From Candidatus Beckwithbacteria bacterium (GTDB lineage Bacteria; Patescibacteriota; Microgenomatia; UBA1400; UBA1449): 64,000 nucleotides of DNA. Where the stretch lies: positions 1,658 through 65,657 of the forward strand of contig JAAZOH010000004.1 in NCBI GenBank assembly GCA_012797845.1. Reading direction: 5' to 3'. The position numbers and the translations under genes are program-made. Of this stretch, positions 10,049-59,613 are shown piece by piece. The notes beneath the pieces were generated by a model. That model ran no database searches. It was given only the letters and a program-made list of their open reading frames with translations, and was not told where the DNA came from. Positions within the stretch are counted from its first letter, which is position 1, and each line of letters begins with the position of its first letter.

Positions 10049-10051
10049 AGT

Positions 10052-10450: not shown

Positions 10451-10472
10451 GGCTAATTTATTGTAGCAAAAG

Positions 10473-11954
10473 TTAGACTTTCTCAGTAACACGATACTCA
10501 ATGTAGCGGCCCAACATAAGTCTAGTATGGGCATCAAGACCAGGTAGAGCTGAGAAGAAAAAGCCCACTACTGGCAAAAGAATATATTCAAATGGAGTGA
10601 GTAGTTTTTTCCAGAGCTTAACTTCTTTTTTACCAGGACGTTGGGTAAAATCAACCACAATAATTAAAAGCATTGAAAGCAGAGAAACTGTTAAAATTGC
10701 TGATGAAGTTTGAGGTAGGCTTTTACCTATCACGGTTCTGGCAAAATCTGGATTTAAAAGGGGTGGCAATGTAGCTCCAATAGTGATAGCAAACCAGTTG
10801 ACTGGCCATAAAAAATGATCTTCAACCACTTTTAGCACCCTAATGGTTTTATCCCAAAAAGGAATTTGTTTAGCCTTAAGCCACTGCATAATAATATACG
10901 GATCATCTGAGGTGCCCCAGGCCCAGCGCTTAACTTGCTCATACTGGTTGACCATAGTTTTTTTAAAGTTTCTAGAGTTAGCAGCATCGGCATGGACTGG
11001 TAAGAAAATAGGTTCAACCGAGACTTTACCATCTGTTTTGAAATAGGCTTTGAAAAAGAGTCGGTAATCTTCTGGAATTACATCTGTATCCCAGTAACCA
11101 ATTCGGTCAATTAACTTTAAAGAAGTAGAATAAGTTGAAAAGTTAATTAACCTATCTTTGCGGTTTAGCATGCCAATTTGGACAATGCTGGCATTGGTGG
11201 CAAAAACCCGGATCGGAGCTGGAATATCCCAGATATTGTTGTAGTACAAAATAGCTGGTTGCCAAAAGCGTTCATAACGCTTAGGATCATCGAGAAATTT
11301 ATATGTTAACGTAGCAAAATACTGCTCATTAAAACGAGCGTCAACATCCTCGCTGCTGATGGTGCAATAGTCAATATCAAAACCCTGTTTATCAATAATT
11401 TCTTTCTTGGCAACTTTAGAAGCCCAAGCCATATTGGAAGATTTACCTACCACTTCTCCCTCTAAAACTGGATGAAAAGTACCGATAAAATTAGCAAACT
11501 TTTTACCGTATTTTTGTTTAAGCGTTTTGTATTTTTTTTGGGCTTCAGGTCCTTCCCGCTCTTCAAATCCTAGGACGATATGGATATTTTTAGTCGGAAA
11601 GGTCTGTGCGACCAAGGCATCTAAAGTTCTTTCTAAAATATATTGTGGTTCACAGTAGTTAGGGATAATGACAATGTGCTGAACTTTTTGCCAATCACCA
11701 AAATCTTTAACATCCCGCATCCAATCGTATTTTTGAAAAGCTTTAATTTTAAAATAAGATAAGGTGGCTAAAATACCTAAACTTAGTGAGCGGTATAGCC
11801 AGTATACGTCAAAAGCTAAAATGTAATAAGCTACTGCTACCGGTATTAACAACGATCCCCATATTGGAAATAAAATCAGCGACCAAGAAACAAAACCAGG
11901 GACGATTTCTAAAAAGCGAAGCAAGCGTTGATCTTTTTTAGTCTGAATATCCAT
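10473..11954 (-). CDS. Membrane-embedded family-2 glycosyltransferase (processive, cellulose-synthase/PgaC-like topology).
   Basis: N-terminal TM pair, then a GT-A region (IIPNYCEP...DALVAQTFP, a DxD-type context) and C-terminal TM helices. 493 aa. Confidence 0.6.
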   Translation of the reverse strand: MDIQTKKDQRLLRFLEIVPGFVSWSLILFPIWGSLLIPVAVAYYILAFDVYWLYRSLSLGILATLSYFKIKAFQKYDWMRDVKDFGDWQKVQHIVIIPNYCEPQYILERTLDALVAQTFPTKNIHIVLGFEEREGPEAQKKYKTLKQKYGKKFANFIGTFHPVLEGEVVGKSSNMAWASKVAKKEIIDKQGFDIDYCTISSEDVDARFNEQYFATLTYKFLDDPKRYERFWQPAILYYNNIWDIPAPIRVFATNASIVQIGMLNRKDRLINFSTYSTSLKLIDRIGYWDTDVIPEDYRLFFKAYFKTDGKVSVEPIFLPVHADAANSRNFKKTMVNQYEQVKRWAWGTSDDPYIIMQWLKAKQIPFWDKTIRVLKVVEDHFLWPVNWFAITIGATLPPLLNPDFARTVIGKSLPQTSSAILTVSLLSMLLIIVVDFTQRPGKKEVKLWKKLLTPFEYILLPVVGFFFSALPGLDAHTRLMLGRYIEYRVTEKV

Positions 11955-22546: not shown

Positions 22547-23632
22547 TTAATTTGTTTTAGCAAGTTGCAGTATGTCTTCAAAGGAATAATTATTGCTGAC
22601 AAAAACATAAAATTTTAAACCAGAGTCTTTACTAGGTTTTTCATACTGAGAGATAGTAACGACTTTTATCTGATTATTATTAAAAGTGATTACTCCATCA
22701 ATACTACCCATAGGTCCACTTGCCATCATTGCTTCAATTTCATTCTCACCCTTTTTAAATCTTTTTTCCCAATCCGCATTTATAAACTTTTTTACTAAGC
22801 TGATATAGTAGTCATAAGAATTACCTATTATATCTTCATCTTTTATAGTCCACAACTCACCTTCTAAAAATACTGGCCCTAAAAGTTTGTTGTCATCATG
22901 GACAAATAAAGCCTCTTCACGATAGTTTTGCTTAACCAGATAAAAATCATTGCCTAATAATTCTCGATAACTATCAAGATCTAAAGATTGATCACCTTCA
23001 TCTAAAAACTTAAATGTGGAAAGGATTTGATCAAAAACATTTTTCAATTCTTGCGTTTCCCCATCCCATGACAAAAAGATTCTAAAAACATTGCCATCTT
23101 TTTCAAAATAAACTAGTTCTCCTGGAGGGTTTTGTCCTCCGGGATATGACTTTTTATAAGCAGGCAGACCATCAATAACGATATTTCTTTCCGCTGTTTT
23201 TGCCTCTCCTGTACCATCCCAAGATGCTTGTACAGAAATATCAATTGTTGCATAAGGAGTAATATTGTCTAAAAAAATTGTTGTTGAAGCTAAATACCCT
23301 GTATAATTTGTTTCTTTTAAACTTGCTAATTTTGGATATTTAAACTCAAAGCCATACCCTTCGCTCGTATATGTTTCCCAATCAGCAGTTTCATCAACTT
23401 GAGCTTGAGGAGTGGGGGTTGGGGTAGGATTTTGGCTTGCTACAGGTGGTTGATTAGCAATTTGTTTCTTAGTTAAGTATTGACCAGCTAGAAATCCAGC
23501 TAGACCAATAAAGCAAATAGCCACTAATCCAAGCGCTACATATAGTAATTTGCTGTTTTTTGGTTTGGGTTGGAATTCTTCCTGAGGAGTTGCAGGATTA
23601 TTAATTGGGGTGGGTTGTTGAGAATTTTGCAT
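22547..23632 (-). CDS. Hypothetical membrane-anchored extracytoplasmic protein.
   Basis: Pro/Gln-rich N-terminus, a single TM segment, a PTPTPTPQ linker, then a roughly 270 aa domain of unknown function. Confidence 0.45.
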   Translation of the reverse strand: MQNSQQPTPINNPATPQEEFQPKPKNSKLLYVALGLVAICFIGLAGFLAGQYLTKKQIANQPPVASQNPTPTPTPQAQVDETADWETYTSEGYGFEFKYPKLASLKETNYTGYLASTTIFLDNITPYATIDISVQASWDGTGEAKTAERNIVIDGLPAYKKSYPGGQNPPGELVYFEKDGNVFRIFLSWDGETQELKNVFDQILSTFKFLDEGDQSLDLDSYRELLGNDFYLVKQNYREEALFVHDDNKLLGPVFLEGELWTIKDEDIIGNSYDYYISLVKKFINADWEKRFKKGENEIEAMMASGPMGSIDGVITFNNNQIKVVTISQYEKPSKDSGLKFYVFVSNNYSFEDILQLAKTN

Positions 23633-23665
23633 ATAGTTTATGATCTCAGGATTATTGATATGGTG

Positions 23666-24544
23666 TCAACTAGCGCTGAAACCAAGCTTAAACTTGGTAA
23701 ATCCCTTCCAACCAGAATTGAGTTTGGGAAAGCGCTCATCCCATAAACCTTCAAAGTCAAAGATTTTCATCTTGCGTTTTTTGCTTTCCAAAATTGCTTG
23801 CCAAATACATAAAGTTGGAGCAAAAAGTTGATGGCTTTTTAGAGTTGAAGCGTTGTGCCAATAGAAAGCCATATTAGGAGTAGTTAGGATAAGACAAGTG
23901 GCCAACAGGTTATTAGTAATAGATTCTTCGCTACGCTCAGAATGACACTTTTGAGAAATAAAGACAAAAAAACATTTCCCTCCAAAAGATCTGACTAAGT
24001 TTTCTAGCTCTGAAAATTTAGGTTTAAACAGCCAGTTGTGCGGTTTATTTTTTGACCACAGTTGATAGAAATTTTGCAATTGTTCTTTGCTTGTTTTATC
24101 TCCAGAAATAATTGAAACTACTAATTTTTGTTGAGCCTTGCGTAAGTTATAACGGGTTTTAGCTTTTAAGTTTGCCAATAAATAGTTTTCAGATTTAGTT
24201 ACGTCAAGCCATAGGGTTTTAGTAGGTAAAACTGGCCAAGAATTATTTTTATCTTTAGTAAAATAAATCTGATCTTTTTTTTGTTTAGCAATAATAAAAG
24301 GTTCTTGCTTAAAAATTACAACTCTATGTTTTCTTTTGATTTGCTTAACCATTTTGGGGTCGAGTGATTTTTTAGCGCGCAAAATTTTAACCAAACCAAA
24401 AGGAGTTAAGGGAATAGTGCGGTAAGAATAAAAAACTGTGTCTTTATCTTGTCTTAAAACACCTTGTTGCCAGCCAAGGGTTTGCATAAATTGGTTGAAC
24501 TGCGATGTTTGACGGACATCAATAAGATTAGTATTTGAAAACAT
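23666..24544 (-). CDS. FemAB-family peptidoglycan interpeptide-bridge aminoacyltransferase (paralog 2).
   Basis: The KAKTRYNLRKAQQK motif and overall FemABX/GNAT-tandem organisation. Confidence 0.7.
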   Translation of the reverse strand: MFSNTNLIDVRQTSQFNQFMQTLGWQQGVLRQDKDTVFYSYRTIPLTPFGLVKILRAKKSLDPKMVKQIKRKHRVVIFKQEPFIIAKQKKDQIYFTKDKNNSWPVLPTKTLWLDVTKSENYLLANLKAKTRYNLRKAQQKLVVSIISGDKTSKEQLQNFYQLWSKNKPHNWLFKPKFSELENLVRSFGGKCFFVFISQKCHSERSEESITNNLLATCLILTTPNMAFYWHNASTLKSHQLFAPTLCIWQAILESKKRKMKIFDFEGLWDERFPKLNSGWKGFTKFKLGFSAS

Positions 24545-25585
24545 TTACAATGGGAGGGCGGCTTTTAACTTAAGCAATTTCCAACGGGCTTTATCAGCTA
24601 TTTGATAAACCTGGTATTTAGGCTGATCAATCACATAATCAAATGTGCCCATAAATTCCATCAAAGTTGGGCCATAGCCTTGCTTGAATTTATGAAAACC
24701 CATCCAGGGATCTTTTGGATCAGGGTCAGGACCAAGGCTACCCCACATGTCAAAAATCTGGCAGCCAGCTTGCTTACCATAGCGTATAGCTTCCCACATC
24801 ATTAGATTGCTAGCCATCACTTCGCGGTCAGCAGAGCTAGAAGCGCCATATGGATAATACAAAATTTGATTAAAGGTAAATAAAATCCAAGTAACTAAAG
24901 TATTGCCTTGGTGAGTTGCTTTAAGAAGGTGAGCAATCCCAGCTGGTTTTAAGACTGACCACATTTGGCGGTGATACTTTTCGTTGTGAGCATAAAAGCG
25001 TTGCCGTTTGGTGGTTTCCTCAAAAGTTAATTTGAGATAATCTTCAAATGCCGATTCACTATTATCTTCGCTAATTTCCACCCCTTTGCGTTGAGCCAGT
25101 CCCACATTGTAGCGGGTTTTTTGCTTCATATTTGCCAGAAGTTCTTGCTCTGAAAGCCTAAGATTAGCCATGAAACTGTATTTAGTAAACATCGGCTTAC
25201 CAAAGACACAGCTATGCTCTTTAAGATATGTTTTGGCTTCAGCCAACTTTTCCTTATTATCAGTTTCAGCTATTTGATATACATTGGGTTCAAGTTTAAT
25301 AAAGATTGCATTTTTAGCTTTGCCCAGATCTTTCAAAGCAGCCAGAACTTCTTCACTAGGTAAAACTGATTTTGGCAAATAACCAATAGTAAAAGGAAAT
25401 TTAGGTACAGGATGAAAGGTGATAGTAAAACCATTGACAATTTTGCTGCCATTAAATTCACCAAGACGAACTACATCAATACCAGTTTTGGCACGAAACT
25501 CGCCCCATTCCCAAGACTGAAGCGGATGGGCCACCGCCTGGTTATAGCTATCTTTTTCTTCTGGTCGTACTTCTCGAACTAACAT
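24545..25585 (-). CDS. FemAB-family peptidoglycan interpeptide-bridge aminoacyltransferase (paralog 1).
   Basis: SWEWGEF, KQKTRYNVGLAQRKGV and a C-terminal GNAT-like half. It is directly adjacent to the second paralog. Confidence 0.75.
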   Translation of the reverse strand: MLVREVRPEEKDSYNQAVAHPLQSWEWGEFRAKTGIDVVRLGEFNGSKIVNGFTITFHPVPKFPFTIGYLPKSVLPSEEVLAALKDLGKAKNAIFIKLEPNVYQIAETDNKEKLAEAKTYLKEHSCVFGKPMFTKYSFMANLRLSEQELLANMKQKTRYNVGLAQRKGVEISEDNSESAFEDYLKLTFEETTKRQRFYAHNEKYHRQMWSVLKPAGIAHLLKATHQGNTLVTWILFTFNQILYYPYGASSSADREVMASNLMMWEAIRYGKQAGCQIFDMWGSLGPDPDPKDPWMGFHKFKQGYGPTLMEFMGTFDYVIDQPKYQVYQIADKARWKLLKLKAALPL

Positions 25586-25673
25586 AATGATAAAATGGAT
25601 TTATTGATGTTACCTTGATCTACCAGCTGTCGGATCGAAATGACAAGGTTAAGTATTTTTATTATAACGCACC

Positions 25674-26777
25674 ATGAACCCAACAGACTATAGCAATACA
25701 CTCTTTTGGCAACGGATCAAACGTTGGCTATTACGGCATATTTGGTTTACTAGGGTAGTAATTATCTTATCGTTTTTGGCGGTACTGACAGTTTTAATTA
25801 GCCTATTTAGTAAACCAGTTTCAAGCTTGTTGCAAAAAATTCTATATGGTCCGAAAGTAGTCACGACTTTTTTTACTGATCCGCTATACACATTGCCCTC
25901 ATATCAAAATCATACCAATATTTTAATTCTGGGCAAAGGTAATGCTAGCCATGAAGCGGCTGATTTGACAGACACTATTATTTTTTTGTCACTGGATTTA
26001 GTTAATAACGAAGTACTGATGCTCTCGATTCCCCGCGATATTTGGATCACCTCTTTAGCAGCCAAAATTAATACAGCCTACTATTATGGTGAACAAAAGG
26101 AAAAAGGCGGTGGTTTTCCTTTGGTTGAAGATGCCGTCTATGAAATTGTTGGTCAACCAATTCACTATGTAGCTATGGTTGATTTTGACGGTTTTGTCAA
26201 ACTGATTGATTTGCTGGGCGGAGTAGATGTAACCGTTGACCAGAGTTTTACTGATGAATTTTACCCTATCCCTGGCAAAGAAGATGATGAGTGTAATGGT
26301 GATCCGGAGTTTAGATGCCGTTATGAAGTTTTACACTTTGAAAAAGGTTTGCAACATATGGATGGGCAAACAGCGCTTAAATTTTCCCGCTCCCGGCATG
26401 CCGAAGGGGATGAAGGCACTGATTTTGCCAGATCAGCTAGACAACAAAAAGTCTTAAAAGCTATCAAAGAAAAACTCAGTTCTTCACAAGTCTATCTTAA
26501 TCCCAGCAAATTACTGGAACTTAAAAAGCTGGCTTCACAATATATTACGTTTAATAAAGATATTTCTGAAAAAATTTATGCTGGTCTGGCTGGTTTTGGT
26601 TATAATTTTTGGCGATCTGGTAAAGAAATTACCACAATCACACTAGATACTGGCGATGACGATAACCCAGGTTTTTTAGTTAATCCTCCTGTTGAAAAAT
26701 ATGATCAGTGGGTGTTGGAGCCCAGTGCCGGAACGTGGGATGAGTTTCAGGCTTATTTACGGCAGAAGATGAAATAA
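25674..26777 (+). CDS. LytR-CpsA-Psr (LCP) family cell-envelope phosphotransferase.
   Basis: N-terminal TM, then ILILGKG...DTIIFLSLD...LSIPRD and VDFDGFVKLIDLLGGVDV, the canonical LCP core motifs. Confidence 0.8.
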   Translation: MNPTDYSNTLFWQRIKRWLLRHIWFTRVVIILSFLAVLTVLISLFSKPVSSLLQKILYGPKVVTTFFTDPLYTLPSYQNHTNILILGKGNASHEAADLTDTIIFLSLDLVNNEVLMLSIPRDIWITSLAAKINTAYYYGEQKEKGGGFPLVEDAVYEIVGQPIHYVAMVDFDGFVKLIDLLGGVDVTVDQSFTDEFYPIPGKEDDECNGDPEFRCRYEVLHFEKGLQHMDGQTALKFSRSRHAEGDEGTDFARSARQQKVLKAIKEKLSSSQVYLNPSKLLELKKLASQYITFNKDISEKIYAGLAGFGYNFWRSGKEITTITLDTGDDDNPGFLVNPPVEKYDQWVLEPSAGTWDEFQAYLRQKMK

Positions 26778-28561: not shown

Positions 28562-28598
28562 AAAAGAAAAACAATTCCTGTCTACGCAGGAATAACGA

Positions 28599-30239
28599 TT
28601 ATTTAACTTTATAAATTTTTAAGCCTGGTTCTTCATAATCGATAATAAAATGTTCATCCAAAAATTGCTCGTTATTTTCAAACATACCCCGACTACTGCT
28701 ATCTAAAATGATCCAATCAATACTGTATTTTTTAATCAAATCTAAGGCCTGAGGTTCACCTTGATATATTTTCCTAACCTCTTCTAGTCTTGAATTATAA
28801 TCAATCCCCCAAGACCAAAGCCAACCCCGATAACCCATCATAATTTGTCGACCAGTTAAAACCGAAGCCCACTGTAAATGCCAATCACTGTTTAAGATAA
28901 TATCATTATGGCTAGATTTACGTCGAAGCATTTGCGCTAAATCGATTTCATGAGAAGTCAACATCGGTTGTTCATTAAATTGAAGTAGTCTAAATAGATC
29001 AAGAGTACCAGCTAAAATTAAAAAGATACATAATATAGTTGCAAGTAATTTGCCTGCTATTTTTTTCTGCCAGACAAAAGATAGCGCTTGGACTGCTAAA
29101 AAACACCAAAAAAGATACACCCAAATAAATAGTTTGGCATTATCCCAATCATAAGGCTGAAATAGCCAGATATTAGCCAATCCAAAAATCAGTAAAAAAG
29201 CCAGGTAAATGTTTCTTAGCTTAGTTTTTTTCCAAATTTGCCAAAAACCAATGGCAACCACTGGTAAAAAAACTCCCCAATTTTTAAACCAAAACAAAAA
29301 CCAAGCCCACAAAGTCCCATTATTATGAGCTAGCCAACCCAGTTGCAATCTCATAAAAGTGCCCAAGTCACGATCAAACCCCCAAAGAAAAAATGGTAAA
29401 GCAGTTAGAAATGCTCCTGCGCCAAAAAGTAACCACTTATACCAATACCGATAAGACATCAATAGTAGCCAAAAACATAGAAAGAAAAGAACAATAACTG
29501 TATGAACATGAACATAGGTGAGTAGTCCAGTGACTAAACCGGCCAAGAAAAGAGTCAGGTTTTTGACTTTAAAATCTTTAAGATACAGCCAGATAACAAA
29601 ACAGAAAACCCAAATGCCCAAACCCATGCCAGCTAACATGGCTCGCTGTGGAATTAAAAAACCTAAAAACACGTTATACATCCAATACCCTAAATCAGGA
29701 ATATGCGTGTTGGCGTAGCGGATATTTTCCGACAAACTAGGGTCTTTTAAAAATTCTATAAACCCTAAACTTCCGCCAGTGAAAAACACACAAATTGCTA
29801 AAAAAATTTGAGCTTCATGTTTAACAAGCATTTTACCTAAGGTATATAAACCTAGTAAAAGTGAGAAAGAAAAAGCTATGGATGGTAAGACCATAGCTTG
29901 AGGTAGGGTAAAACCAACCTTTAAAAGATTAGCAGAAAGGAGATTGGTAAAAAGAGGATAAGCTAATTTTTGGCCATAAAACAAAGGATTATTAGCAAGA
30001 ACTGCTCCCAATGGTCTGGAATACAGATTCATAACCTGGCTAATATGCATAGCCCAATCAGCCCAAACAATCCACCAACCGGTGGTTAAATTACCATCGC
30101 TATCAACGTAAAGCATCTTGGGCCAAAAGGTAAGAAAAAAGACTCCCCAAGTTGCTAATAGAATCAGCAGCCAGCGATTTTTTTTAAAATCAAATTTAAA
30201 ATCTATATATGATTGGTGAGGAAATGATTTTTTCAACGC
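28599..30239 (-). CDS. Large polytopic membrane protein, GT-C-fold glycosyltransferase-like.
   Basis: More than 10 TM helices in the N-terminal two thirds and a soluble C-terminal domain. The architecture resembles PMT/ArnT/oligosaccharyltransferase-like GT-C enzymes. Start set at the internal Met (MALKKSF), 3 nt after the GT39 stop. Confidence 0.45.
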   Translation of the reverse strand, partial: ALKKSFPHQSYIDFKFDFKKNRWLLILLATWGVFFLTFWPKMLYVDSDGNLTTGWWIVWADWAMHISQVMNLYSRPLGAVLANNPLFYGQKLAYPLFTNLLSANLLKVGFTLPQAMVLPSIAFSFSLLLGLYTLGKMLVKHEAQIFLAICVFFTGGSLGFIEFLKDPSLSENIRYANTHIPDLGYWMYNVFLGFLIPQRAMLAGMGLGIWVFCFVIWLYLKDFKVKNLTLFLAGLVTGLLTYVHVHTVIVLFFLCFWLLLMSYRYWYKWLLFGAGAFLTALPFFLWGFDRDLGTFMRLQLGWLAHNNGTLWAWFLFWFKNWGVFLPVVAIGFWQIWKKTKLRNIYLAFLLIFGLANIWLFQPYDWDNAKLFIWVYLFWCFLAVQALSFVWQKKIAGKLLATILCIFLILAGTLDLFRLLQFNEQPMLTSHEIDLAQMLRRKSSHNDIILNSDWHLQWASVLTGRQIMMGYRGWLWSWGIDYNSRLEEVRKIYQGEPQALDLIKKYSIDWIILDSSSRGMFENNEQFLDEHFIIDYEEPGLKIYKVK

Positions 30240-31498
30240 CATGTAGTTAGCCAGCGATGCTGTTCGACATTTGGTTTTGATAAAGGAATCCCAGTCCAAA
30301 AAGGATAGAAATACCAAAAAGTTATAAAAACTGAAATCAAGAAAAAATAAACAAACGCCTTGAGGACAGCATTATGATACCAAATAAACCACAGGGTAAA
30401 AGCCAAGATAATGCACATAATGGGTACGGCTGGTAAGTAATGATACAAAAACATAATTCGGGGTGAATCAATCCATTGTAGCCAAGCCGTAGGATATGCT
30501 AGAAGCAAAAACCATAAATTTTTGTGCCTAGTAATTATGGCTAAAAAGAAAGTAAAAAAGACAGCTACAAAACCACACCAGAAAATCAAAGGATGTCCAA
30601 AGGCATAAATATTAGCAATTGTATCTTGCTGATAATTTACCCAAAACCAAACCGGTTTAAGATCCAATGGCCAGGAAATAGCTGGCGACTGTGAAGGGTG
30701 AGTAGCAACCAAATGAGAATGATACCAATACATTTGCTGATGCAGTTCAATAATTTTGTCAAAACCATAGTGCCAAAACACAAAACTAAAACTAAACGCA
30801 TAAACTACAAAACCAGCTGCAATATATAAAATCATGTGTTTGTAAAGTTTTAGAATATTTATAAGTATTGCCTTTGGATCACGAGACCACTTAGTGTGTA
30901 ATATAAAAAAAACAAAGACATATGCTAATACAAATACCCCAGTCCATTTACAGGCTGAAGCGGCTCCCCAAAAGAGCGCTGAAACAAAAAACTTTTTTTT
31001 AAGCAAAAAATAAATACTGGTAGTAATAAAAAGTGTTAACAATGAATCAACGAGGGCAATGCGGGATAGGGTTAGAACCAAACCATCGCAAGCTACTAAA
31101 AAAGCCGCTACTAAGGGAATAAATTTATTTTTAGGAAAAAGCAACTCGCTCAATTTAAAAACAACAAAACTAAGAAGTACGCCAGCTATCATAGGTGCTA
31201 ATCTTCGGGAAAAAGAACTTTGACCTAAAAGTCTAATTGGTAAAGACACAATAATTCGGCCTAGGGGAGGGTGGTCCCAGTTGTAAGCAAAACCTTCTGG
31301 TGCTGGATAATCCCAAACCCAAGCTTTATTATTTCCAGCTGCATACTGTTCGGCGGTAAAGCCGGCATACACTTCATCAAAAACGTACTCATTTGGATAA
31401 TACAGTTGCCAGGATTTAGTAATTACGGCAAAAAGCAAGATTACCAGTAAAAGTAAAGTATAGTAGTTCTTGTTAAAAAATTTACGTAAACGAAACAT
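30233..31498 (-). CDS. GT39-family (protein O-mannosyltransferase / PMT-like) membrane glycosyltransferase.
   Basis: First extracytoplasmic loop carries the VFDEVY Asp-Glu motif diagnostic of the PMT/GT39 and ArnT GT-C clade. Multi-TM, 421 aa. Confidence 0.6.
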   Translation of the reverse strand: MFRLRKFFNKNYYTLLLLVILLFAVITKSWQLYYPNEYVFDEVYAGFTAEQYAAGNNKAWVWDYPAPEGFAYNWDHPPLGRIIVSLPIRLLGQSSFSRRLAPMIAGVLLSFVVFKLSELLFPKNKFIPLVAAFLVACDGLVLTLSRIALVDSLLTLFITTSIYFLLKKKFFVSALFWGAASACKWTGVFVLAYVFVFFILHTKWSRDPKAILINILKLYKHMILYIAAGFVVYAFSFSFVFWHYGFDKIIELHQQMYWYHSHLVATHPSQSPAISWPLDLKPVWFWVNYQQDTIANIYAFGHPLIFWCGFVAVFFTFFLAIITRHKNLWFLLLAYPTAWLQWIDSPRIMFLYHYLPAVPIMCIILAFTLWFIWYHNAVLKAFVYFFLISVFITFWYFYPFWTGIPLSKPNVEQHRWLTTWR

Positions 31499-31501
31499 AA
31501 C

Positions 31502-32362
31502 TTAAAGTAGTAAAAGTAGTAAGCCAATAGTAACACCAATCACTCCAGTCAATTTTTTGCGATTTAAATCGTCTTTGTAAAAATAGGCAGCACATAACGT
31601 TACCAGAGAAATTGAAGCTGCATTCATAGCATTAATGTATCCAGGGTTGGGTGCAAATTTATACCCTATTTGCATAAATAAATTAAACAACATAGCGCTA
31701 ACCCCAATTAAGATCAATATTTTCAGTTGGGAGCTGTTATACAAAAATTGTTTTTTTCTTATTTTCATTTCTATGATAGTAAATAACGAGACAAATAGAA
31801 AAATATAAAAAAGAAAAACTAATATTTCTATTCCCTGTCCAATAAAATATTTTGAAGCTAAAGCTAAGCCACCCCAAGCAAAAAAAGCACCGAAAGCATA
31901 TAGAACCCAAGTTTTTGAAGCTCTGACTTCTTTTTGTTTATTTTTATCAACCATAATCACGGCACTAAAAATAATAATGAGTAAAATCGCCATTATTTCT
32001 TTAGCTGACAAAGCTGAATCGAAAATTAAAACTGCAGTCAAGGTGGTAAAAATGACGTAACTTTTGGACAGAATTAAGCTATAGCCAGGATTTGGAGCCA
32101 AACGAATACTATTTAATGAAAACACATTTCCTAAGTAACTTAGAAAAAAACCAGCTAATGCAAAAACACCGATCCAATGCCAAGGAATAAATAACGAATT
32201 GGATTGAAATACATTCATCACTAGAAAAATGAAAGTTGGGATAGCAAACATAGCAAAATTATTAAAAACTGTTTCAGTTTTCAGTTGTTGACTTTTGCGC
32301 ACCAGAAGATATAAAGCAACAGAAGATATGAGCATAATAAAACCTGCCAAGATCCAGTTCAT
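31502..32362 (-). CDS. Polytopic membrane protein (possibly DMT/EamA-like).
   Basis: 286 aa with about 9-10 hydrophobic helices, between the GT39 gene and the Cys-rich surface protein gene. Confidence 0.4.
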   Translation of the reverse strand: MNWILAGFIMLISSVALYLLVRKSQQLKTETVFNNFAMFAIPTFIFLVMNVFQSNSLFIPWHWIGVFALAGFFLSYLGNVFSLNSIRLAPNPGYSLILSKSYVIFTTLTAVLIFDSALSAKEIMAILLIIIFSAVIMVDKNKQKEVRASKTWVLYAFGAFFAWGGLALASKYFIGQGIEILVFLFYIFLFVSLFTIIEMKIRKKQFLYNSSQLKILILIGVSAMLFNLFMQIGYKFAPNPGYINAMNAASISLVTLCAAYFYKDDLNRKKLTGVIGVTIGLLLLLL

Positions 32363-32405
32363 ATATAGAATTATAGTCTACAGAAAAGTTTGTGTTAATT
32401 AGAGT

Positions 32406-33647
32406 TTAGAGGAGAAGTCCGATTGCTACCAAGACCACCCCACCAAGTGTAAATAGGAAAGTGGGTGGTAAACCTCCAGCTTTGGGAAGCTCAGGGGCTT
32501 TAGGAGGTTGAGGTGTATCTGTTGGAGTAGCTGTAGGAGTTGGAGTAGAGCAAGTACAGTCAGACTCTTCGTTACATGATGGATTGACGCAACGTTTGGT
32601 ACCATTGATTTCTTCGCAAGTCATACTGCCACTGCATTCATCATCGTTATTACACTCACCCCAACAGTCAGGACAGCTACAATCAGTTTGCAGAGGGCAG
32701 TCATTATTGACACATCGATTAACCCCATTGATGCTTTTACATGTCAAACTATCTGGGCAATCTTCACTTGAATCACATTCTTCATAACATCCTGGACAGC
32801 TACAGCTTTCACTAGTTGGACATGATGAATTAATACATCTCATAACCCCATCAACACTTTGACAAGATAAACTATCAGGACATTCATCCTTATTATTACA
32901 CTCTTGATAACAAGTTGGGCAACTACAATCAGTTTGTAAGGGACAACTAGCATTAACACACATTTTTTGGACAATATTGTTGTAAGTTACATCTTTACAA
33001 ATTAGTCCACTAGTACAGTCCGCATCAGTCGAACAATTACCAGAATAACATGAATTTTGGCCAACACTAAAATTAATCTCGCACACATTAGCACTAGGTG
33101 TGCTTTCATCTTCACCTTCAAGTTGAAAGACTTCTGGGGTAGTAGCTTGTTGGCTAACAGTACTACTGGGAGTTTGAGTGTCGGAAACGATGTCTTGCTG
33201 ATTTGTTTTTAAATAAACCAACATTAAACCAGCAGTTACAATCAAGCCTGTAAAAAGTAGAATTGGTACAATTAAAAATACAGTTTTCAAAACCGAATGT
33301 TTAGGCTTTGTTGAGTTTTCAGGTTCCTGTTTTGGTTGTTCCAGTTTCTTTTTTTCAGGAGGTTCAGACTTAGAATCTGCTTTATTTTCATCAATAGTAT
33401 TTTCTAAAGGAGTTGGAGGAAGAGTGCTGCTTATTGTGTTTTGTTCTGTTGCTAAAGAAGTTGGTTGAATAAGTGCTTCATCTATGTCTATTTTTTCCGG
33501 ATTTACTTTTTCCTCCATGGAAGTAGGTTTAACTGTGTTATCAATAGTATCTATATGAACTGGATTACTATGCTTATGAGGTTTATTGAAATTGGGTGTT
33601 TTAACTAAGTGAGGTTTAGAAGTTGATGTATGATTATCAAAATCCAT
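32406..33647 (-). CDS. Cysteine-rich tandem-repeat surface protein with an N-terminal TM anchor and a C-terminal hydrophobic tail.
   Basis: Three and a half copies of a 41 aa unit (C-x-N-x-SCP-x4-CSCP-x-C-x2-EC-x4-(D/E)CPDSL-x-C-x-S-x-(D/N)G-x2-RC). A TPTPTATPTDTPQPP linker precedes ELPKAGG and a hydrophobic C-terminus. The DNA shows the matching 123 bp periodicity across 32560-33000. Confidence 0.6.
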   Translation of the reverse strand: MDFDNHTSTSKPHLVKTPNFNKPHKHSNPVHIDTIDNTVKPTSMEEKVNPEKIDIDEALIQPTSLATEQNTISSTLPPTPLENTIDENKADSKSEPPEKKKLEQPKQEPENSTKPKHSVLKTVFLIVPILLFTGLIVTAGLMLVYLKTNQQDIVSDTQTPSSTVSQQATTPEVFQLEGEDESTPSANVCEINFSVGQNSCYSGNCSTDADCTSGLICKDVTYNNIVQKMCVNASCPLQTDCSCPTCYQECNNKDECPDSLSCQSVDGVMRCINSSCPTSESCSCPGCYEECDSSEDCPDSLTCKSINGVNRCVNNDCPLQTDCSCPDCWGECNNDDECSGSMTCEEINGTKRCVNPSCNEESDCTCSTPTPTATPTDTPQPPKAPELPKAGGLPPTFLFTLGGVVLVAIGLLL

Positions 33648-33651
33648 AAAA

Positions 33652-35055
33652 TTAAGCCTTGTTTATAACCTTAGCATAGAATCCGGTGGTAAGTAAAACA
33701 AAACCAAGCAACAAAATCCCATAGGTTGGTAGTGAAAAACCAGAAGTGGGAGTTCCACTTTCAGTAGAGGGCATGCTACTGCGAGTAACTGAAGTAGCTG
33801 AAGGGGTAGCTTCAAAGGCTGGTAAATCATCGCCACCTACTCCAGCAGTAGCGATAACAAAGCTGCGGTTTAATGTCTGATTGTCACCATTACTATCAGT
33901 ATAATCAATGGTAAGTGTATGAGATCCCTCAGCTAGATTGGAGTTTGGACTATAGCTCCAGGTTCCTTCGCTATCTACTACTGCAGTAGCAGTTGTGGTA
34001 CCACTATCAATTTGAATTGTTAAAACTTTATTAGCAGGGCCTTCTCCAAAAAAATCAGGTTGAGTTGTGTTTAGTTCTTCGCCGTCATCAGCTGGATTAG
34101 TAATGCTTACAGGAATACTTTCAAGTGGATTTTGTTCTAATTCTTGGGCATAGGTTTCTGGCATTTCTCCGCTATCAGTAGCTTCTTCATCTGGCTCTAT
34201 TGGTAAAGCTTCTGGTTCTGTAGTTTCTTCATCTGTTGCAAGAATTTCATCAGTTGGAAAATCCTGAACTTCTTCATCAATAGTTGAAGGCATTGGCTCA
34301 GGTTCTGCTTGAGCTAAAGCTGTAAAGTCATAGGTTTGACCAAGAGTTATAGCTGGTACAGGAGAATCATTGGCAGTATTGGTAGTTACATTACTAGTTT
34401 TACCGTCACCTTGAACCATAATATCAATAATTGTTGTTTCCGGGTCATATTGAGCATACTCTGTGAGTTTAGTGGTGCGAGCATTTGCAAGACTAATGAG
34501 CCAACTACCATCCTTTTTAACTTGAGTTGAAAGAGGAGTTACGCCTGGAATAGTAACATACACAATAGAACCACTGGCAGGAGCACCACTTTCTAAACTA
34601 ACTGTTCCGTTGATCAAATCAGTTGGAGGTTGTGAACCTAGGGTGGGAGCGGTTTTTACAGAATATGCTTCACCATTATCATTAAAAGAGATTAGTTTTT
34701 CTCCTGATTTAATCTCAAAATTATACGTAGTGGCAGGTTGCAAACCGGTAATTGTAGCGTGATGAACTTTATAATCCTGAGCTTGGCCTGTTAGCTGATC
34801 ATTATCATCAAGTTGTACTTGGTCAAGTTTGCCTTTGCTGCCATAGGCAATTGATCCTTTAGTAGCAGCATCGGTCAGCCATGAGACGGTAAAGCGGTCA
34901 TGAGAAACATTGGTAATTTTGACTTTTTTAGGGGTAATAGTTGGATCTTTCTGAAATGTCAGAAGGCCTTTTTGATAAACAAAATAGCCACCAAAGAGTA
35001 AAGCAATCAAAACAACAGTAACTCCAAGATAAGTAAATAATTGCTTTGTATTCAT
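33652..35055 (-). CDS. Surface protein with a fibronectin-III-like domain, a bacterial Ig-like domain, and a C-terminal sorting-signal-like tail.
   Basis: Signal/TM anchor at the N-terminus. KVKITNVSHDRFTVSWLTD...TYNFEIKSG is FN3-like (purple acid phosphatase N-terminal type). An acidic linker is followed by a Big-like unit (EGSHTLTIDYTDSNGDN). The protein ends SLPTYG + a hydrophobic helix + KVINKA. Confidence 0.6.
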   Translation of the reverse strand: MNTKQLFTYLGVTVVLIALLFGGYFVYQKGLLTFQKDPTITPKKVKITNVSHDRFTVSWLTDAATKGSIAYGSKGKLDQVQLDDNDQLTGQAQDYKVHHATITGLQPATTYNFEIKSGEKLISFNDNGEAYSVKTAPTLGSQPPTDLINGTVSLESGAPASGSIVYVTIPGVTPLSTQVKKDGSWLISLANARTTKLTEYAQYDPETTIIDIMVQGDGKTSNVTTNTANDSPVPAITLGQTYDFTALAQAEPEPMPSTIDEEVQDFPTDEILATDEETTEPEALPIEPDEEATDSGEMPETYAQELEQNPLESIPVSITNPADDGEELNTTQPDFFGEGPANKVLTIQIDSGTTTATAVVDSEGTWSYSPNSNLAEGSHTLTIDYTDSNGDNQTLNRSFVIATAGVGGDDLPAFEATPSATSVTRSSMPSTESGTPTSGFSLPTYGILLLGFVLLTTGFYAKVINKA

Positions 35056-35072
35056 AGAGCAGTTTAATATGT

Positions 35073-35420
35073 TTATTCTAATTCTCCGGAACCACTAGCT
35101 ATTAGCTCTTGTACCTGGGCAGGTAGAGAGACTCGATTATTAGCTGTATTAATACTAGCAGATTTGCTGATGCTAATGCTAGTATAAGGTTCGATTTTTG
35201 CTAGATCGATTCTAGGTACTACAAACCTACCTTGAACAAGATCAATAGCCTGTTGGTTAAATAAATTTTTGATAGGTTTAGCTGCTGCTTTAGCAGTTGT
35301 GGTTGCAAAATTGACATTTTTACTTTTACTCATATCAATAAAAAACCAGAGCAAACTAGTGATTAAAAGTAAAAAAGTAATAATAAACCAGTGGTTAATG
35401 CCTTGACGTTTATTTGCCAT
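35073..35420 (-). CDS. Small single-TM protein (possible PilP-like pilus assembly component).
   Basis: Start set at the MANKRQG Met. One TM helix then a roughly 80 aa soluble part. Positioned after pilN and pilO, as pilP is in type IV pilus operons. Confidence 0.35.
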   Translation of the reverse strand: MANKRQGINHWFIITFLLLITSLLWFFIDMSKSKNVNFATTTAKAAAKPIKNLFNQQAIDLVQGRFVVPRIDLAKIEPYTSISISKSASINTANNRVSLPAQVQELIASGSGELE

Positions 35421-35424
35421 ACAT

Positions 35425-36081
35425 TTATTCTTCCAGTTTGTTACCAAAATAAACAGTACATCTTAGATTTAAGCTCAGTTGAGATGACTGTTTACCTGTT
35501 TGTAAAACTGCAGTATCTATATGAGCAATACGAATATGCTGCTCCAAATCATTGATAAATTTTTTAATACCCTCATAAGAGCCCTGAGCATTGAGGTTGA
35601 TCGAAATAGCCTTCACCCCGTTTGGTAGCTGTTGTTTTTTACTCTCTGTTTTAGATGGGTCTTCATCTATTTCAGTTTGATCAAATAAGGGAAATTCTGA
35701 AAAAGAAAGCGAGGAAACGAGTAAATCATTCCTTTGGATAAAATAGCGAAGCTGTTGTTCAAAGAGTAAAAAATTATGATCATCCGGTAAAGCTTGATCT
35801 GCCAAAGAGATTGTCTGAGACATAGTTTCATAACTAGCGTTTAGGCTTTGAATAGTGTTAATTTTGGTCACTAATGATTTATTTAACGTATCAAATTCTT
35901 CTATTTTGTCTTGAAGTTGGGAAATAGTAATAATGGTAGGTTTGACTGCGAAAAGAAATAAAGCAATCACCAGGATTACTGATAAAACAAAATCCAGAGA
36001 AGCTTGGGCAAAAGGGTTATTGCGATACTTCTCGTACGTTTTGTTGTAATTACCGAACTGATCAAGATCAAGTGTTTTCAT
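35425..36081 (-). CDS. pilO: Type IV pilus assembly protein PilO-like.
   Basis: Short cytoplasmic N-terminus, a single TM, a coiled coil, then a C-terminal alpha/beta domain. The size and position after pilN fit PilO. Confidence 0.55.
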   Translation of the reverse strand: MKTLDLDQFGNYNKTYEKYRNNPFAQASLDFVLSVILVIALFLFAVKPTIITISQLQDKIEEFDTLNKSLVTKINTIQSLNASYETMSQTISLADQALPDDHNFLLFEQQLRYFIQRNDLLVSSLSFSEFPLFDQTEIDEDPSKTESKKQQLPNGVKAISINLNAQGSYEGIKKFINDLEQHIRIAHIDTAVLQTGKQSSQLSLNLRCTVYFGNKLEE

Positions 36082-36668
36082 AACTCGGTTTTAGCTAAAT
36101 CACAAGATAATTTTATAGAAAAACTGATTTCTGGATCAGACAATCCTCCTGAACTTAATTCATCAATAACTATTTCAGAAAACTGAGGCTGAATTTGTAA
36201 TGATGCCAACATATTTGAAAAAACAGTTTCATTTGGCACTGTTCCTTCAAAAGATAACTGTTGCTGATTTAAAGTAATAGTTTCTAAGACGGCTGTTTTT
36301 GGCAAATTATGTTCAAGTAGATTAATAGCTTCAGACAGTGACTGATCATCTTTTGTTAAAGTGTCAATGTTATCAAGGCGGTTTTGTAATTTTCTGATTT
36401 TGATTTCAGTATCACCGAGCTGCTGAATAATATCTGTGTTACTTTCAATATTTTCAGCTAATTGATCTACTTTGCGATCAAGACTAAAACGAACCAAAAG
36501 TGCGATGATAATAATGAGAAAAGTTCCAAATAAAATCAGCTTACCAATACGCAGAGCCCAATTAAAAGTTTGACCTACAGGACTTGCTTCAAAGGATTTA
36601 CTGGAAAGCAAATTGATAGCAATAGAAGACTGTTTTTTAGCCATTGTGGACAGGTTTACAATTAGCAA
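36078..36668 (-). CDS. pilN: Type IV pilus assembly protein PilN-like.
   Basis: Conserved N-terminal INLL motif (SIAINLLSSK), a single TM, and a coiled-coil periplasmic region. A 4 nt overlap with pilO suggests translational coupling. The start could instead be the internal Met at 36644. Confidence 0.55.
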   Translation of the reverse strand: MLIVNLSTMAKKQSSIAINLLSSKSFEASPVGQTFNWALRIGKLILFGTFLIIIIALLVRFSLDRKVDQLAENIESNTDIIQQLGDTEIKIRKLQNRLDNIDTLTKDDQSLSEAINLLEHNLPKTAVLETITLNQQQLSFEGTVPNETVFSNMLASLQIQPQFSEIVIDELSSGGLSDPEISFSIKLSCDLAKTEL

Positions 36669-36798
36669 TTATTTGTCTAAAGGAATTTGGCTATAGCCGA
36701 GATAAAAACACCAAATTTGCCCAGCAGACAAACCTACTTCCATTATAGGCAAGTACACACTCAAGTGTAAAGAAGGGAAAATTGTTTAAAAACTAAAA

Positions 36799-37077
36799 TT
36801 AAGCTTTTTTAGCAGTTTTTTTGTCGCTGTTTTTAGGAGTGGTAGCCTGATTAAGTTTAGCTAATTGGCTTTTAAGTCTGGCTACTTTATTTTTATGAAA
36901 CAGTTTCCGTTTGATAGCTTTATCTAGAGATGAAAAAGCTTCACTTAAATTTTCCTTGGTAGGAGTTTGATAAGCCTTTTTAAGCATAGTTTTAGCTTTG
37001 CTTTTAACCGGCTTATTAAAACTAGCGCGACGTTTACTTTGACGAAGAGCTTTTTTAGCTGATTTGATGATTGGCAT
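36799..37077 (-). CDS. rpsT: 30S ribosomal protein S20.
   Basis: MPIIKSAKKALRQSKRR... is a highly basic 92 aa protein with the canonical S20 N-terminus. Confidence 0.9.
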   Translation of the reverse strand: MPIIKSAKKALRQSKRRASFNKPVKSKAKTMLKKAYQTPTKENLSEAFSSLDKAIKRKLFHKNKVARLKSQLAKLNQATTPKNSDKKTAKKA

Positions 37078-37197
37078 ACGTTATATTTCAATTTTCAATT
37101 TCACAATTGAAAGAATTGATTATTCTATTCAAAATTACTGTCGGATTTTACCATTTTGTATCTTTGATTACAAGAGAGCAGCTGTTATCATATCTTC

Positions 37198-38883
37198 ATG
37201 GTTGGAAAACTATTTAAAACTGGTGGTCGATTTTTTTCTTCAAAACAAAACTCGATTTTATCAGCAGCCTTTATTTTAATGATGGCTGTGATGATTTCCC
37301 GAGTTTTAGGGTTGGTGCGAAACCGCTTATTGGCCGGAACTTTTTTTGGAGGACAGGAATGGCAACTGGATGCGTACTATGCAGCTTTTACCTTGCCTGA
37401 CATGATTTTTCAGTTGATTGTACTGGGAGCGCTATCTTCAGCTTTTATTCCGGTTTATAGCTCTTACTTAAAAAAAAATGAAGATGAAGCCTGGCAGATT
37501 TCTTATGGAGTGATTACTTTGGCTATTATTGGCTTTAGTCTTTTATCAATTGTTATTTTTATCTTTGCTTACCCTTTAAGTAGTTTGATTGCTCCCAATT
37601 TTCCATCTGAAAGTTTGCTTGTCATGACCAAACTAACTAGGGTGATGTTGTTAGCGCAATTGTTTTTTTTAGTCTCAAATTTTTTTACAGGAATTTTACA
37701 ATCACATCAAAGGTTTTTATTGCCGGCAATAGCACCAATCTTATATAACTTAGGCATTATTAGTGGCATTGTCTTACTGGCTCCACAATTTGGGATTTAT
37801 GGTCCGGCTATTGGAGTAGTTGTCGGAGCTTTATTACATTTGTTAGTACAGCTGCCATTGGTTAAAAAAATTGGTTTTGCCTATAAGCCAAGGCTAGGAC
37901 TTAATCTTAAGGGTGTAAGAAAAATTGGCAAATTGATGATTCCTCGGACTTTAGCTTTAGCAGTAAGCCAAATCGAAGCTGTATTAGCCGTTTTTTTAGG
38001 TTCGGCAATGGTGGCTGGTTCTATTAGTATTTTTAATTTTGCCCAATCAATTTATGCGCTACCAATAGGTTTGTTTGGTTTAACTATTGGCCAAGCGGCT
38101 TTCCCCATGCTTTCTAAAGAAACCGATGATGAATCTAATCTTATGCAATTTAAAAACTTGTTTTTATCTTCGTTTAAACAAATTTTGTATTTGACCTTAC
38201 CCTCTAGCGCATTGTTACTGGTTTTACGGGTACCTTTGGTCAGAATTGTAGTTGGAGCCAAAACTTTTCCCTGGGAAGCTACGCTTTTAACCAGCCAAGC
38301 GGTGGCTATTTTAGCCTTATCTGTTGCGGCCCAAGCAGTGATCCAACTTTTAGTCAGATCATTTTATGCGTTGCAAGACACCAAAACGCCTTTGTTCATT
38401 GGCATGGTTTCAGTTTTAACTAATGTAGTTTTGAGCTTTTATTTTGTTAACTCTTTAAAATTTGGAGTTATTGGTTTGGCTTTGTCATTTACTCTTGCAG
38501 GGATTTTTCAAGCCATTTTATTATTTAGCTTTTTAAATAAAAAAATACACTATTTACCTATAAGCGAATGGGGTTTGCCCATCTTTAAAATGCTCATTGC
38601 TACGGTTTTAACTGGTGTATCTTTATGGTTACCGATGCGATTACTAGACCGCTTTATTTTGGATACGACTAGAACTATCAATTTATTGGTTTTGACTGTA
38701 GTAGCTGGGGCGTGTGGATTTATCGTCTATCTTGTTTTTTCTAAAATTTTACAAATTAAAGAGCTGGATCAGTTTTTGAAGATTTTTGAAAAATTTGGAG
38801 CGTGGCGCAAAGTCTTTGATGAAAGTGAGGAAGTTTTAGCCGAGCCTTCAGCTATCTCCCAATCTGCTCCACTTCAAGAGTAA
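37198..38883 (+). CDS. murJ: Lipid II flippase MurJ (MviN).
   Basis: 14-TM MOP-superfamily protein with the N-terminal SAAFILMMAVMISRVLGLVRNRLLA region characteristic of MurJ. Confidence 0.85.
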   Translation: MVGKLFKTGGRFFSSKQNSILSAAFILMMAVMISRVLGLVRNRLLAGTFFGGQEWQLDAYYAAFTLPDMIFQLIVLGALSSAFIPVYSSYLKKNEDEAWQISYGVITLAIIGFSLLSIVIFIFAYPLSSLIAPNFPSESLLVMTKLTRVMLLAQLFFLVSNFFTGILQSHQRFLLPAIAPILYNLGIISGIVLLAPQFGIYGPAIGVVVGALLHLLVQLPLVKKIGFAYKPRLGLNLKGVRKIGKLMIPRTLALAVSQIEAVLAVFLGSAMVAGSISIFNFAQSIYALPIGLFGLTIGQAAFPMLSKETDDESNLMQFKNLFLSSFKQILYLTLPSSALLLVLRVPLVRIVVGAKTFPWEATLLTSQAVAILALSVAAQAVIQLLVRSFYALQDTKTPLFIGMVSVLTNVVLSFYFVNSLKFGVIGLALSFTLAGIFQAILLFSFLNKKIHYLPISEWGLPIFKMLIATVLTGVSLWLPMRLLDRFILDTTRTINLLVLTVVAGACGFIVYLVFSKILQIKELDQFLKIFEKFGAWRKVFDESEEVLAEPSAISQSAPLQE

Positions 38884-59231: not shown

Positions 59232-59243
59232 ATAGTCCTCCGT

Positions 59244-59612: not shown

Positions 59613-59613
59613 G

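Follow-up and report, generated by a model that had tools for sequence, protein, structure and literature searches.

A run of eight minus-strand genes, g1 to g8, was analysed in a 64,000-nt stretch from the small genome of Candidatus Beckwithbacteria bacterium (Microgenomates, Candidate Phyla Radiation; contig JAAZOH010000004.1, positions 1,658 to 65,657; hereafter the window). Inspection of the letters and open reading frames (ORFs) alone, the sequence-only reading, had taken this run for a single operon in which pilus-assembly genes, two surface proteins and two GT-C membrane glycosyltransferases form one system for the glycosylation and display of adhesin-like proteins. The results favour, with a probability of roughly 0.55, a locus of juxtaposed modules, in which a general two-enzyme O-mannosylation unit lies beside, and not within, an island of pilus-platform and surface-protein genes. 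Module A would comprise a PilN/PilO pair, a small bitopic protein and a cell-wall-anchored protein with fibronectin type III (FN3) and immunoglobulin-like (Ig) domains. Module B, the g5 slot, would hold variable surface proteins with sortase-like signals, one to five such genes in other genomes, and module C, g7 and g8 with an EamA gene ahead of them here, would be an extracytoplasmic glycosylation unit. Judging from its catalytic residues, the protein O-mannosyltransferase (PMT) g7 would move mannose from polyprenyl-phosphate-mannose onto Ser/Thr of proteins emerging from the membrane; g8 would be either the second subunit of a Pmt1-Pmt2-like heterodimer or the enzyme adding a further sugar from a lipid-linked donor, and the EamA protein would flip the lipid-linked donor. 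Rather than being reserved for g3, g4 and g5, the pair probably acts on many secreted proteins. The new elements are the pairing of PMT with g8 across phyla and the g8 family itself; O-mannosylation by PMT, PilN/PilO and sortase-type proteins are already known.

All eight ORFs were present in the window, and the gene set was reproduced by independent calls on the identical Logan contig. Gene starts were corrected from these calls and from orthologue alignments. The genes, all on the minus strand, are listed in order of transcription.

36078-36644, minus: g1, PilN-like bitopic protein; the ATG at M9 agrees with the orthologue alignment
35425-36081, minus: g2, PilO-like bitopic protein
35073-35420, minus: g3, small bitopic protein of 115 aa with one transmembrane (TM) helix
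33652-35055, minus: g4, FN3/Ig surface protein, identical (100%) to GYA49_00685
32406-33647, minus: g5, Cys-rich repeat surface protein
31502-32362, minus: g6, polytopic transporter of the EamA/DMT family
30233-31498, minus: g7, GT39 PMT without a MIR domain
28599-30242, minus: g8, GT-C protein of 547 aa, starting at M26 of the long ORF and identical (100%) to GYA49_00665

The identities first proposed for the eight genes (PilN, PilO, bitopic, FN3/Ig, Cys-rich, polytopic, GT39 and GT-C proteins) all held.

Pfam searches of the glycosyltransferase genes matched g7 with PMT (PF02366; 61.4 bits against a cut-off of 22.7, 1e-16), PMT_4TMC (PF16192; 75.4 bits against 32.4, 5e-21) and also PMT_2. 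The g7 family profile matched only PMT chains in the PDB (Pmt1, Pmt2, Pmt4 and one same-named chain) with E values of 1e-81 to 6e-56. The VFDEVY motif at residues 39-44, from which the GT39 identity had originally been read, aligns with VFDEVH of yeast Pmt1; D41-E42, D151 and R347/F350 of g7 align on Pmt1 D77-E78, D189 of external loop 2 (EL2) and R649/F652 of the EL5 RxxF motif. These yeast residues are equated with D74, D176, R441 and Y444 of MtPMT, shown to be essential there (PMC12331936). Among the PMT orthologues neighbouring g8 (n = 48), the acidic loop residues D41 and E42, on which the sequence-only reading had staked its glycosylation hypothesis, were conserved in all 48, R347 likewise in 48, D151 in 47 and F350 in 46. 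By these matches and alignments g7 is a true GT39 PMT with intact catalytic residues.

Like the actinobacterial Pmt enzymes (GT39; M. tuberculosis Rv1002c, C. glutamicum, Streptomyces), g7 combines PMT and PMT_4TMC without MIR and conserves the DE motif, the EL2 Asp and the EL5 RxxY/F. Its expected donor is again polyprenyl-phosphate-mannose, and its expected acceptors are Ser/Thr of Pro/Thr-rich secreted regions. It differs from them in the occurrence of its family in the Candidate Phyla Radiation (CPR) and many non-actinobacterial phyla, and in its genetic pairing with a GT-C enzyme of another, undescribed family; its activity is a prediction. Bacterial protein O-mannosylation has been examined in Actinobacteria only (PMC11727336; bioRxiv 10.64898/2026.07.15.738315), and a literature search found no work on O-mannosylation in Microgenomates or on PMT in Patescibacteria.

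The partner gene product, g8, had been described as a second GT-C-like membrane protein. Its model (pLDDT 92.7, pTM 0.91) consists of a TM domain and a C-terminal alpha/beta domain, and Foldseek matched it with probability 1.00 to STT3 (E 4.5e-8), AglB, PglB, DPY19, AftA, ArnT and AftD, with TM-scores of about 0.5. Because of these matches g8 is assigned the GT-C fold and is, by its model, a GT-C-fold enzyme, in agreement with the earlier call. Searches with g8 gave no match among Pfam, NCBIfam, PDB sequences or PDB profiles, and none at the sequence level to the named GT-C families (GT39, GT66 oligosaccharyltransferases, GT83, GT87, GT98 DPY19, AftA); a few distant members gave weak matches only, to DUF6798, DUF6541 and Dpy19. 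A profile search returned 2,610 clusters (50% identity) at E ≤ 1e-30 and 4,263 at E ≤ 1e-10. In a collection with one genome per species, 309 places with confirmed relatives were identified, in taxa including Patescibacteria, Desulfobacterales, Nitrospirales, Cyanobacteria, Myxococcota, Bdellovibrionota and Terriglobia.

Conservation within the family was assessed in 278 near-full-length members. D62, H66, Y95, R200, H245, D367, N368 and K370 were each found in 272-277 of them; D62, which lies in the first external loop after the TM1 helix (23-42), was kept in 277 and H66 in 275. Because this polar site is invariant, g8 looks catalytic; the family is large, undescribed and probably catalytic. 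The near-invariance of D62, H66, R200, H245 and D367-N368-x-K370 also disfavours g8 as a degenerate, non-catalytic partner of the ML2687c type. Descent from a PMT paralogue was likewise rejected: profile-profile comparison of the g8 and PMT families (hhalign) gave a probability of 1.9%, and Foldseek matched Pmt1/Pmt2 only at E of about 0.5-0.8. Weak triose-phosphate isomerase matches to the C-terminal domain (E 0.1) were judged spurious. At the start of that soluble domain, residues 469-482 form a conserved aromatic motif, MGYxGW[LI]WS[YW]GIDY. Oligosaccharyltransferases carry the motif WWDYG in the C-terminal soluble domain and a DxD in EL1. WWDYG is absent from g8, and the position of the 469-482 motif recalls it, the place being comparable by sequence. 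Neither the g8 family nor its pairing with PMT was found described in the literature searched.

The distribution of the pair was analysed with hidden Markov models built from the window proteins. The ORFs of 88 loci, located with a 12-sequence g8 alignment, were scanned, and 82 non-redundant species loci were counted. A PMT with the FDEV motif immediately adjoins g8 in at least 43 of the 82 loci, or in 48 if five loci hidden by ORF-overlap filtering are included. Adjacent pairs, in tandem or divergent orientation, are spread over about 10 phyla. At least 16 come from genomes labelled as non-CPR phyla, and adjacency was seen in Desulfobacterales, Nitrospirales, Myxococcota, Bdellovibrionota, Cyanobacteria, Terriglobia, Halieaceae and Gallionellaceae. 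Of the 82 loci, 22 have a GT2 gene (PF00535) for an enzyme of polyprenyl-phosphate-sugar synthase type no more than 7 kb away, and the Gallionellaceae locus L062 has the order g8/PMT-GT2-GtrA.

In Woesebacteria relatives g8 is absent and the PMT carries a fused N-terminal GT87 domain. These PMTs are 772-814 aa long (L089:13905-16223, minus; L091:16490-18934, minus), and in the L089 protein a GT87 domain (residues 54-290) is fused to the PMT core (392-771). Mycobacterial Pmt is predicted to pair with the GT87-like GT-C protein ML2687c, described as being without catalytic residues, and GT39-GT87 fusions have been noted in Paenibacillus (bioRxiv 10.64898/2026.07.15.738315). Because of the Woesebacteria fusion and this precedent, a PMT with a second GT-C protein looks like a general unit, in which g8 would represent a novel type of second component. 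As in yeast Pmt1-Pmt2 and mycobacterial Pmt-ML2687c, a GT39 enzyme is coupled to a second membrane protein of GT-C fold; unlike those partners, g8 belongs to neither GT39 nor GT87 and is built like STT3/AftA, with a soluble domain at the C-terminus. In contrast to ML2687c it keeps its polar site, and the coupling here is one of gene adjacency. The partners and elongating enzymes of bacterial PMT are still unsettled (PMC11727336; bioRxiv 10.64898/2026.07.15.738315); g8 is a concrete candidate for such a second component, with family members in cultivable lineages of Desulfobacterales, Myxococcota and cyanobacteria, and PMTs with intact catalytic residues now extend to CPR and about 10 other phyla.

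The same survey bears on a distinctly unlikely alternative, namely that g7 and g8 decorate a cell-wall glycopolymer or lipoglycan instead of proteins, as the GT-C parts of a three-component system like Gtr or Arn. Like GtrA/GtrB/Gtr* and ArnC/ArnEF/ArnT (PMC11127046), the pair would consist of GT-C enzymes acting on polyprenyl-monophosphate sugars; a GT2 synthase and GtrA adjoin PMT-g8 in some phyla, the Gallionellaceae locus being the example, and in the window a DMT-family EamA gene lies directly upstream. The envelope genes around the locus (murJ, LCP, two FemAB), the position of a Desulfobacteraceae pair between an ABC-2 permease and a Wzt-type ATPase, the occurrence of g8 alone in many loci and the fold matches of g8 to AftA, AftD and ArnT, enzymes with glycan or lipid acceptors, would also suit such a role. 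The locus departs from the three-component systems, however, in that the window holds no GT2 synthase, the EamA position is not conserved, two GT-C enzymes are present where those systems have one, and the acceptor is probably a protein and not a polysaccharide or lipid A. The protein acceptor is favoured by the exclusive PDB match of the g7 family to PMTs and by its retained peptide/donor pocket residues. Moreover, characterised GT39 enzymes all use a protein acceptor (PMC11727336), and the best fold matches of g8 (STT3, AglB, PglB, DPY19) modify proteins.

Two of the loci carry further neighbours of the pair. In the Desulfobacteraceae loci L021 (7654-12881) and L027, PMT-g8 lies beside the ABC-2 permease, and the Wzt-type ABC ATPase is on the other side in L021. 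A 587-aa protein with a (TP)10 linker is encoded immediately upstream in a Desulfobacteraceae locus, where the polysaccharide-export and Pro/Thr-linker contexts are mixed.

The modular reading is carried by the separability of the pair from the PilN genes. Among the g8-anchored loci, pilN-pilO-g3-g4 adjoins PMT-g8 in 13 only, all of Microgenomates type; these share lepA-murJ-rpsT on one flank and uvrD, femAB or LCP on the other, and 9 of the 13 have their PMT on the opposite strand. Six further loci were sampled independently through g4 or PilN: a fused PMT is nearby in two, g8 in none, and neither occurs within 10 kb in four (L090, L092, L093 and one JGI contig). In GCA_964620965.1 the PilN module and g8 are on separate contigs. 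The interval from g4 to PMT holds zero to five genes in relatives, and in L089 and L091 it includes at least two sortase-signal genes each. In many phyla PMT and g8 are neighbours without pilN or pilO beside them.

The junctions from g1 to g8 are -4, 4, 17, 4, 43, 3 and -10 nt, so that g7 and g8 overlap by 10 nt. The gaps or overlaps of 2-20 nt stated previously were found except between g5 and g6, where 43 nt contain a promoter-like match. The run is also longer than eight genes, because rpsT upstream and three genes downstream (CYTH, a 138-aa ORF and NTPase_I-T) share its strand. Three regulatory-like sites were recorded.

36742..36771, minus: promoter-like site in the rpsT-g1 gap, TTTACA-18-TATAAT, 11/12, consensus match only
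32370..32398, minus: promoter-like site in the g5-g6 gap, TTAACA-17-TATAAT, 11/12, consensus match only
28574..28593, minus: terminator-like hairpin with T-run directly 3' of the g8 stop, pattern match only

The two 11/12 sites are the best promoter-like matches on the minus strand. Genes g6 to g8 are bracketed by a promoter-like site at the 5' side and a terminator-like site at the 3' side. The -10 box of the g5-g6 site ends 7 nt upstream of the g6 ATG, with no Shine-Dalgarno sequence, and the EamA-PMT-g8 transcript may be leaderless.

It is unlikely that all eight genes form one apparatus for glycosylating these adhesin-like proteins and presenting them in association with a type IV pilus. 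The eight genes are confirmed as consecutive and co-directional with short gaps, and the order pilN-pilO-small protein-FN3/Ig-(surface proteins)-PMT does recur in Microgenomates-type genomes, in the 13 g8-anchored loci and in two of the six anchored on g4 or PilN. Moreover, Pro/Thr-rich proteins are confined to g4 and g5 within the 64 kb, and g3 orthologues carry S/T/P tails. Conserved order within this lineage is not specific evidence, however, because the flanking murJ, lepA, rpsT, uvrD, femAB and LCP genes are equally syntenic. The claim that the operon is conserved as a unit failed on the four loci of six with a PilN module and no PMT or g8, and on the flipped PMT strand in 9 of 13. That of one dedicated glycosylation unit is contradicted by the pairing of PMT and g8 in many phyla without PilN genes and by the presence of EamA here only. 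The single operon is called into question by the promoter-like site, a consensus match only, that divides the run upstream of EamA-PMT-g8, and pilin and pilus ATPase genes are not nearby.

Several observations weigh against juxtaposed modules with a general O-mannosylation unit. The surface-protein island remains next to PMT in Microgenomates-type genomes despite changed orientation and intervening genes, and this persistent neighbourhood could reflect a functional tie and not inherited synteny. About 40% of the loci have g8 without an adjacent PMT. The window holds no GT2 of the DPM1/GtrB type (polyprenyl-phosphate-mannose synthase) and no sortase gene. Against the NCBIfam actinobacterial Pmt equivalog NF058602, g7 scored 27.7 bits with a cut-off of 800; because this lies far below the cut-off, g7 belongs to the family without being an equivalog, and its acceptor specificity could differ. 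All glycosylation steps are predictions from sequence or model. Finally, the promoter- and terminator-like sites are consensus matches whose overall count in the region is at chance level.

The candidate acceptors of the glycosylation unit are the surface proteins. In g4, Pfam identified fn3/Pur_ac_phosph_N and Big_13 domains. From the N-terminus, it has a TM helix, FN3, a second beta-sandwich, a disordered acidic linker, the Big_13 Ig domain, a disordered S/T/P stalk and a C-terminal TM helix. Its model (pLDDT 82) contains three beta-domains, and the fold matches were generic strings of FN3/adhesin domains. The C-terminal signal consists of TPTSG, a TM helix and KVINKA. Analysis of the g4 family (n = 120) showed the C-terminal TM helix in 119, the basic tail in 111, the xPx[ATS]G motif in 89 and an S/T/P-rich window in 109. 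LPTYG was rejected as the sorting motif of g4, the alignment showing that the upstream xPx[AS]G (TPTSG in the window) is the conserved one. C-mannosylation of g4 at WxxW was also rejected; the conserved GxWSWSPP of the Ig domain is not WxxW, and the window has WSYS.

In the second surface protein, g5, residues 123-141 form a TM helix; the protein has 33 Cys in total and three repeats, each 41 aa long with 8 Cys. Its C-terminal part contains the TPTPTATPTDTPQPP stalk, LPKAG and a terminal TM helix; the basic tail is absent. No Pfam family was found for g5 or its 8-Cys repeats. A 120-aa low-complexity N-terminal extension precedes the first TM helix and is missing in the L010 orthologue, the length of g5 orthologues varies, and some relatives have no g5.

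Sortase-like signals of the form [LVIT]Px[ATS]G followed by a hydrophobic helix are shared by g4 and g5 with the variable genes that occupy this position in relatives, and had been overlooked in the sequence-only reading. The variants include LPKAG, LPTAG, LPEAG, LPNAG, LPDAG, VPETG and the canonical LPQTG, the last two in relatives. Within the 64-kb window such C-terminal signals were found in g4 and g5 only, as were 20-residue stretches with at least 14 S/T/P among ORFs of at least 100 aa. Together, these stretches and signals support g4 and g5 as surface proteins with Pro/Thr-rich stalks. The Thr/Pro linkers proposed for both proteins were confirmed as S/T/P-rich stretches immediately ahead of the C-terminal anchors; the stretch originally named in g4, TEPEALPIEPDEEATD, is an acidic linker instead. 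The architecture resembles that of Gram-positive LPXTG surface proteins in the N-terminal signal or anchor, beta-sandwich domains, Pro/Thr stalk, C-terminal motif, hydrophobic helix and, for g4, basic tail, and differs in the motif, mostly [LVIT]Px[AS]G here, in the tail missing from g5 and in the lack of a sortase gene in the window. No NCBIfam LPXTG-anchor model matched g4 or g5 above cut-off, and no paper dealing with sortase signals of Patescibacteria came up in the literature search.

The Pro/Thr stalks of g4 and g5 and the tails of g3 would be the best nearby candidate acceptors. This gains some support because the sole Pro/Thr-rich proteins in 64 kb adjoin the enzymes and because proteins with (TP)n linkers occur near PMT-g8 elsewhere, in Nitrospirales (an SdrD_B/DUF11 adhesin-like protein) and Desulfobacteraceae loci. 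Many PMT-g8 loci lack a Pro/Thr-linker neighbour, which makes general glycosylation more likely than a dedicated one. Glycosylation of pilins by the GT-C pair was rejected, as no class III (pilin-type) signal peptides were found among the window proteins. CPR cells probably rely on surface contact with their hosts, and the locus names specific surface proteins of CPR with sortase-like anchor signals that may be glycosylated.

The pilus-type genes of module A were examined in the same way. The Pfam matches are above cut-off and marginal for both g1 (PilN, 25.8 bits against 22.8) and g2 (PilO, 23.0 bits against 22; T2SSM_b, 21.2 bits), and their orthologues match PilN (PF05137) and PilO clearly. 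Each protein has one TM helix, at 33-51 in g1 and 28-46 in g2. INLLP is the PilN peptide that binds PilM; the corresponding N-terminal motif is AINLLS in the window and INLLPKD in orthologues, where N11 is invariant and L12 and L13 are at least 90% conserved. The pilN-like and pilO-like calls were upheld by the matches, the bitopic topology and this motif. PilO directly follows PilN in every related locus, and the position of g3 after PilO is kept in at least 14 loci. No known family was found for g3 in Pfam or NCBIfam, and many of its orthologues have an S/T/P-rich tail.

The module pilN-pilO-g3(-g4) adjoins murJ, rpsT or lepA in every CPR locus seen (window: 36078-38883; L004, L006, L008, L010, L047, L059, L070, L072, L074 and L089-L093). 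No pilM, pilB, pilC, pilT, pilD or pilin gene was found in the 64-kb window, so that the supposed association with a type IV pilus apparatus was not supported there, and no pilus-cluster gene occurs within 10 kb of the module in about 20 related loci. As in the PilM-PilN-PilO(-PilP) assembly of type IV pili, the bitopic PilN and PilO are in tandem with an INLLP-type motif, and g3 occupies the PilP position as a small third protein; the differences are the lack of adjoining pilM, pilus ATPase, platform or pilin genes and the fixed tie of the module to murJ and a sortase-signal FN3/Ig protein. Module A most likely represents the alignment platform of a type IV pilus-like machine together with a wall-spanning accessory protein, and the murJ linkage of PilN/PilO without other pilus genes nearby may leave room for a co-opted, non-pilus role.

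Such a role, in which PilN/PilO would serve envelope growth or the anchoring of surface proteins as a membrane scaffold where lipid II is exported, is very unlikely. It would agree with the neighbourhood of the module, which is murJ, rpsT or lepA and never pilM, pilB, pilC or pilins, with the sortase-signal protein that always follows PilN/PilO, and with PilMNO homologues that have reportedly been co-opted by flagella in other bacteria. A pilus function is nevertheless favoured by the INLLP-type PilM-binding motif and Pfam matches retained in the orthologues, and full type IV pilus sets are generally present in CPR genomes, in numerous of which the components reportedly co-localise (PMC6744442). 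The loci seen here expose a fixed association of PilN/PilO with murJ.

A more far-reaching proposal combines such a scaffold with the glycosylation unit. Here g8 would be a new protein-modifying GT-C family, like an oligosaccharyltransferase or C-mannosyltransferase, in an obligate complex with PMT that places a glycan on sortase-anchored stalks, and in Microgenomates the PilN/PilO scaffold would organise adhesin secretion, glycosylation and wall anchoring at the MurJ lipid II export site. We regard it as highly doubtful.

Within the preferred modular arrangement, the polytopic protein g6 matched Pfam EamA (3e-14) and is a candidate lipid-linked-sugar flippase. Among the 88 loci, EamA was found at this position in the window copy only. 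Three EamA-family paralogues are encoded in the window, at 31502-32362 (g6), 54607-55506 and 57976-58836.

Other envelope-related genes were noted. At 22547-26777 the window carries genes for a PsbP_2-like protein, two FemAB paralogues and an LCP (LytR_cpsA_psr) protein. Many CPR loci have FemAB and LCP genes, together with uvrD, in the vicinity of PMT/g8, and at least one (L006) has a PsbP_2-like gene there. On the minus strand, 8088-11954 carries a UbiA-family prenyltransferase, a Glycos_transf_4 protein (MraY/WecA-like), a 161-aa ORF and a 493-aa GT2, which could form a separate polyprenyl-phosphate-linked glycan pathway. A PEGA+SH3_3 protein is encoded at 7170-8084 (plus strand). In 15 loci without adjacent PMT (L030, L032, L033, L037, L041 and ten more), a relative follows the Lon protease gene and immediately precedes g8; most of these loci bear the label Paceibacterota/Pacebacteria or Patescibacteria group.

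Some contigs from GTDB representative metagenome-assembled genomes are titled 'uncultured Pseudomonadales' and have CPR-type content and synteny (FemAB, UvrD, MurJ-PilN-PilO); these titles look mis-assigned (L003/L075, L004/L069, L031, L035, L045, L046 and others). An Rfam search of the window returned two tRNAs only. At 58854-63660, the window encodes two single-domain response regulators, an NMT1/THI5-like binding protein, a PAS-HAMP histidine kinase and an OmpR-type regulator.

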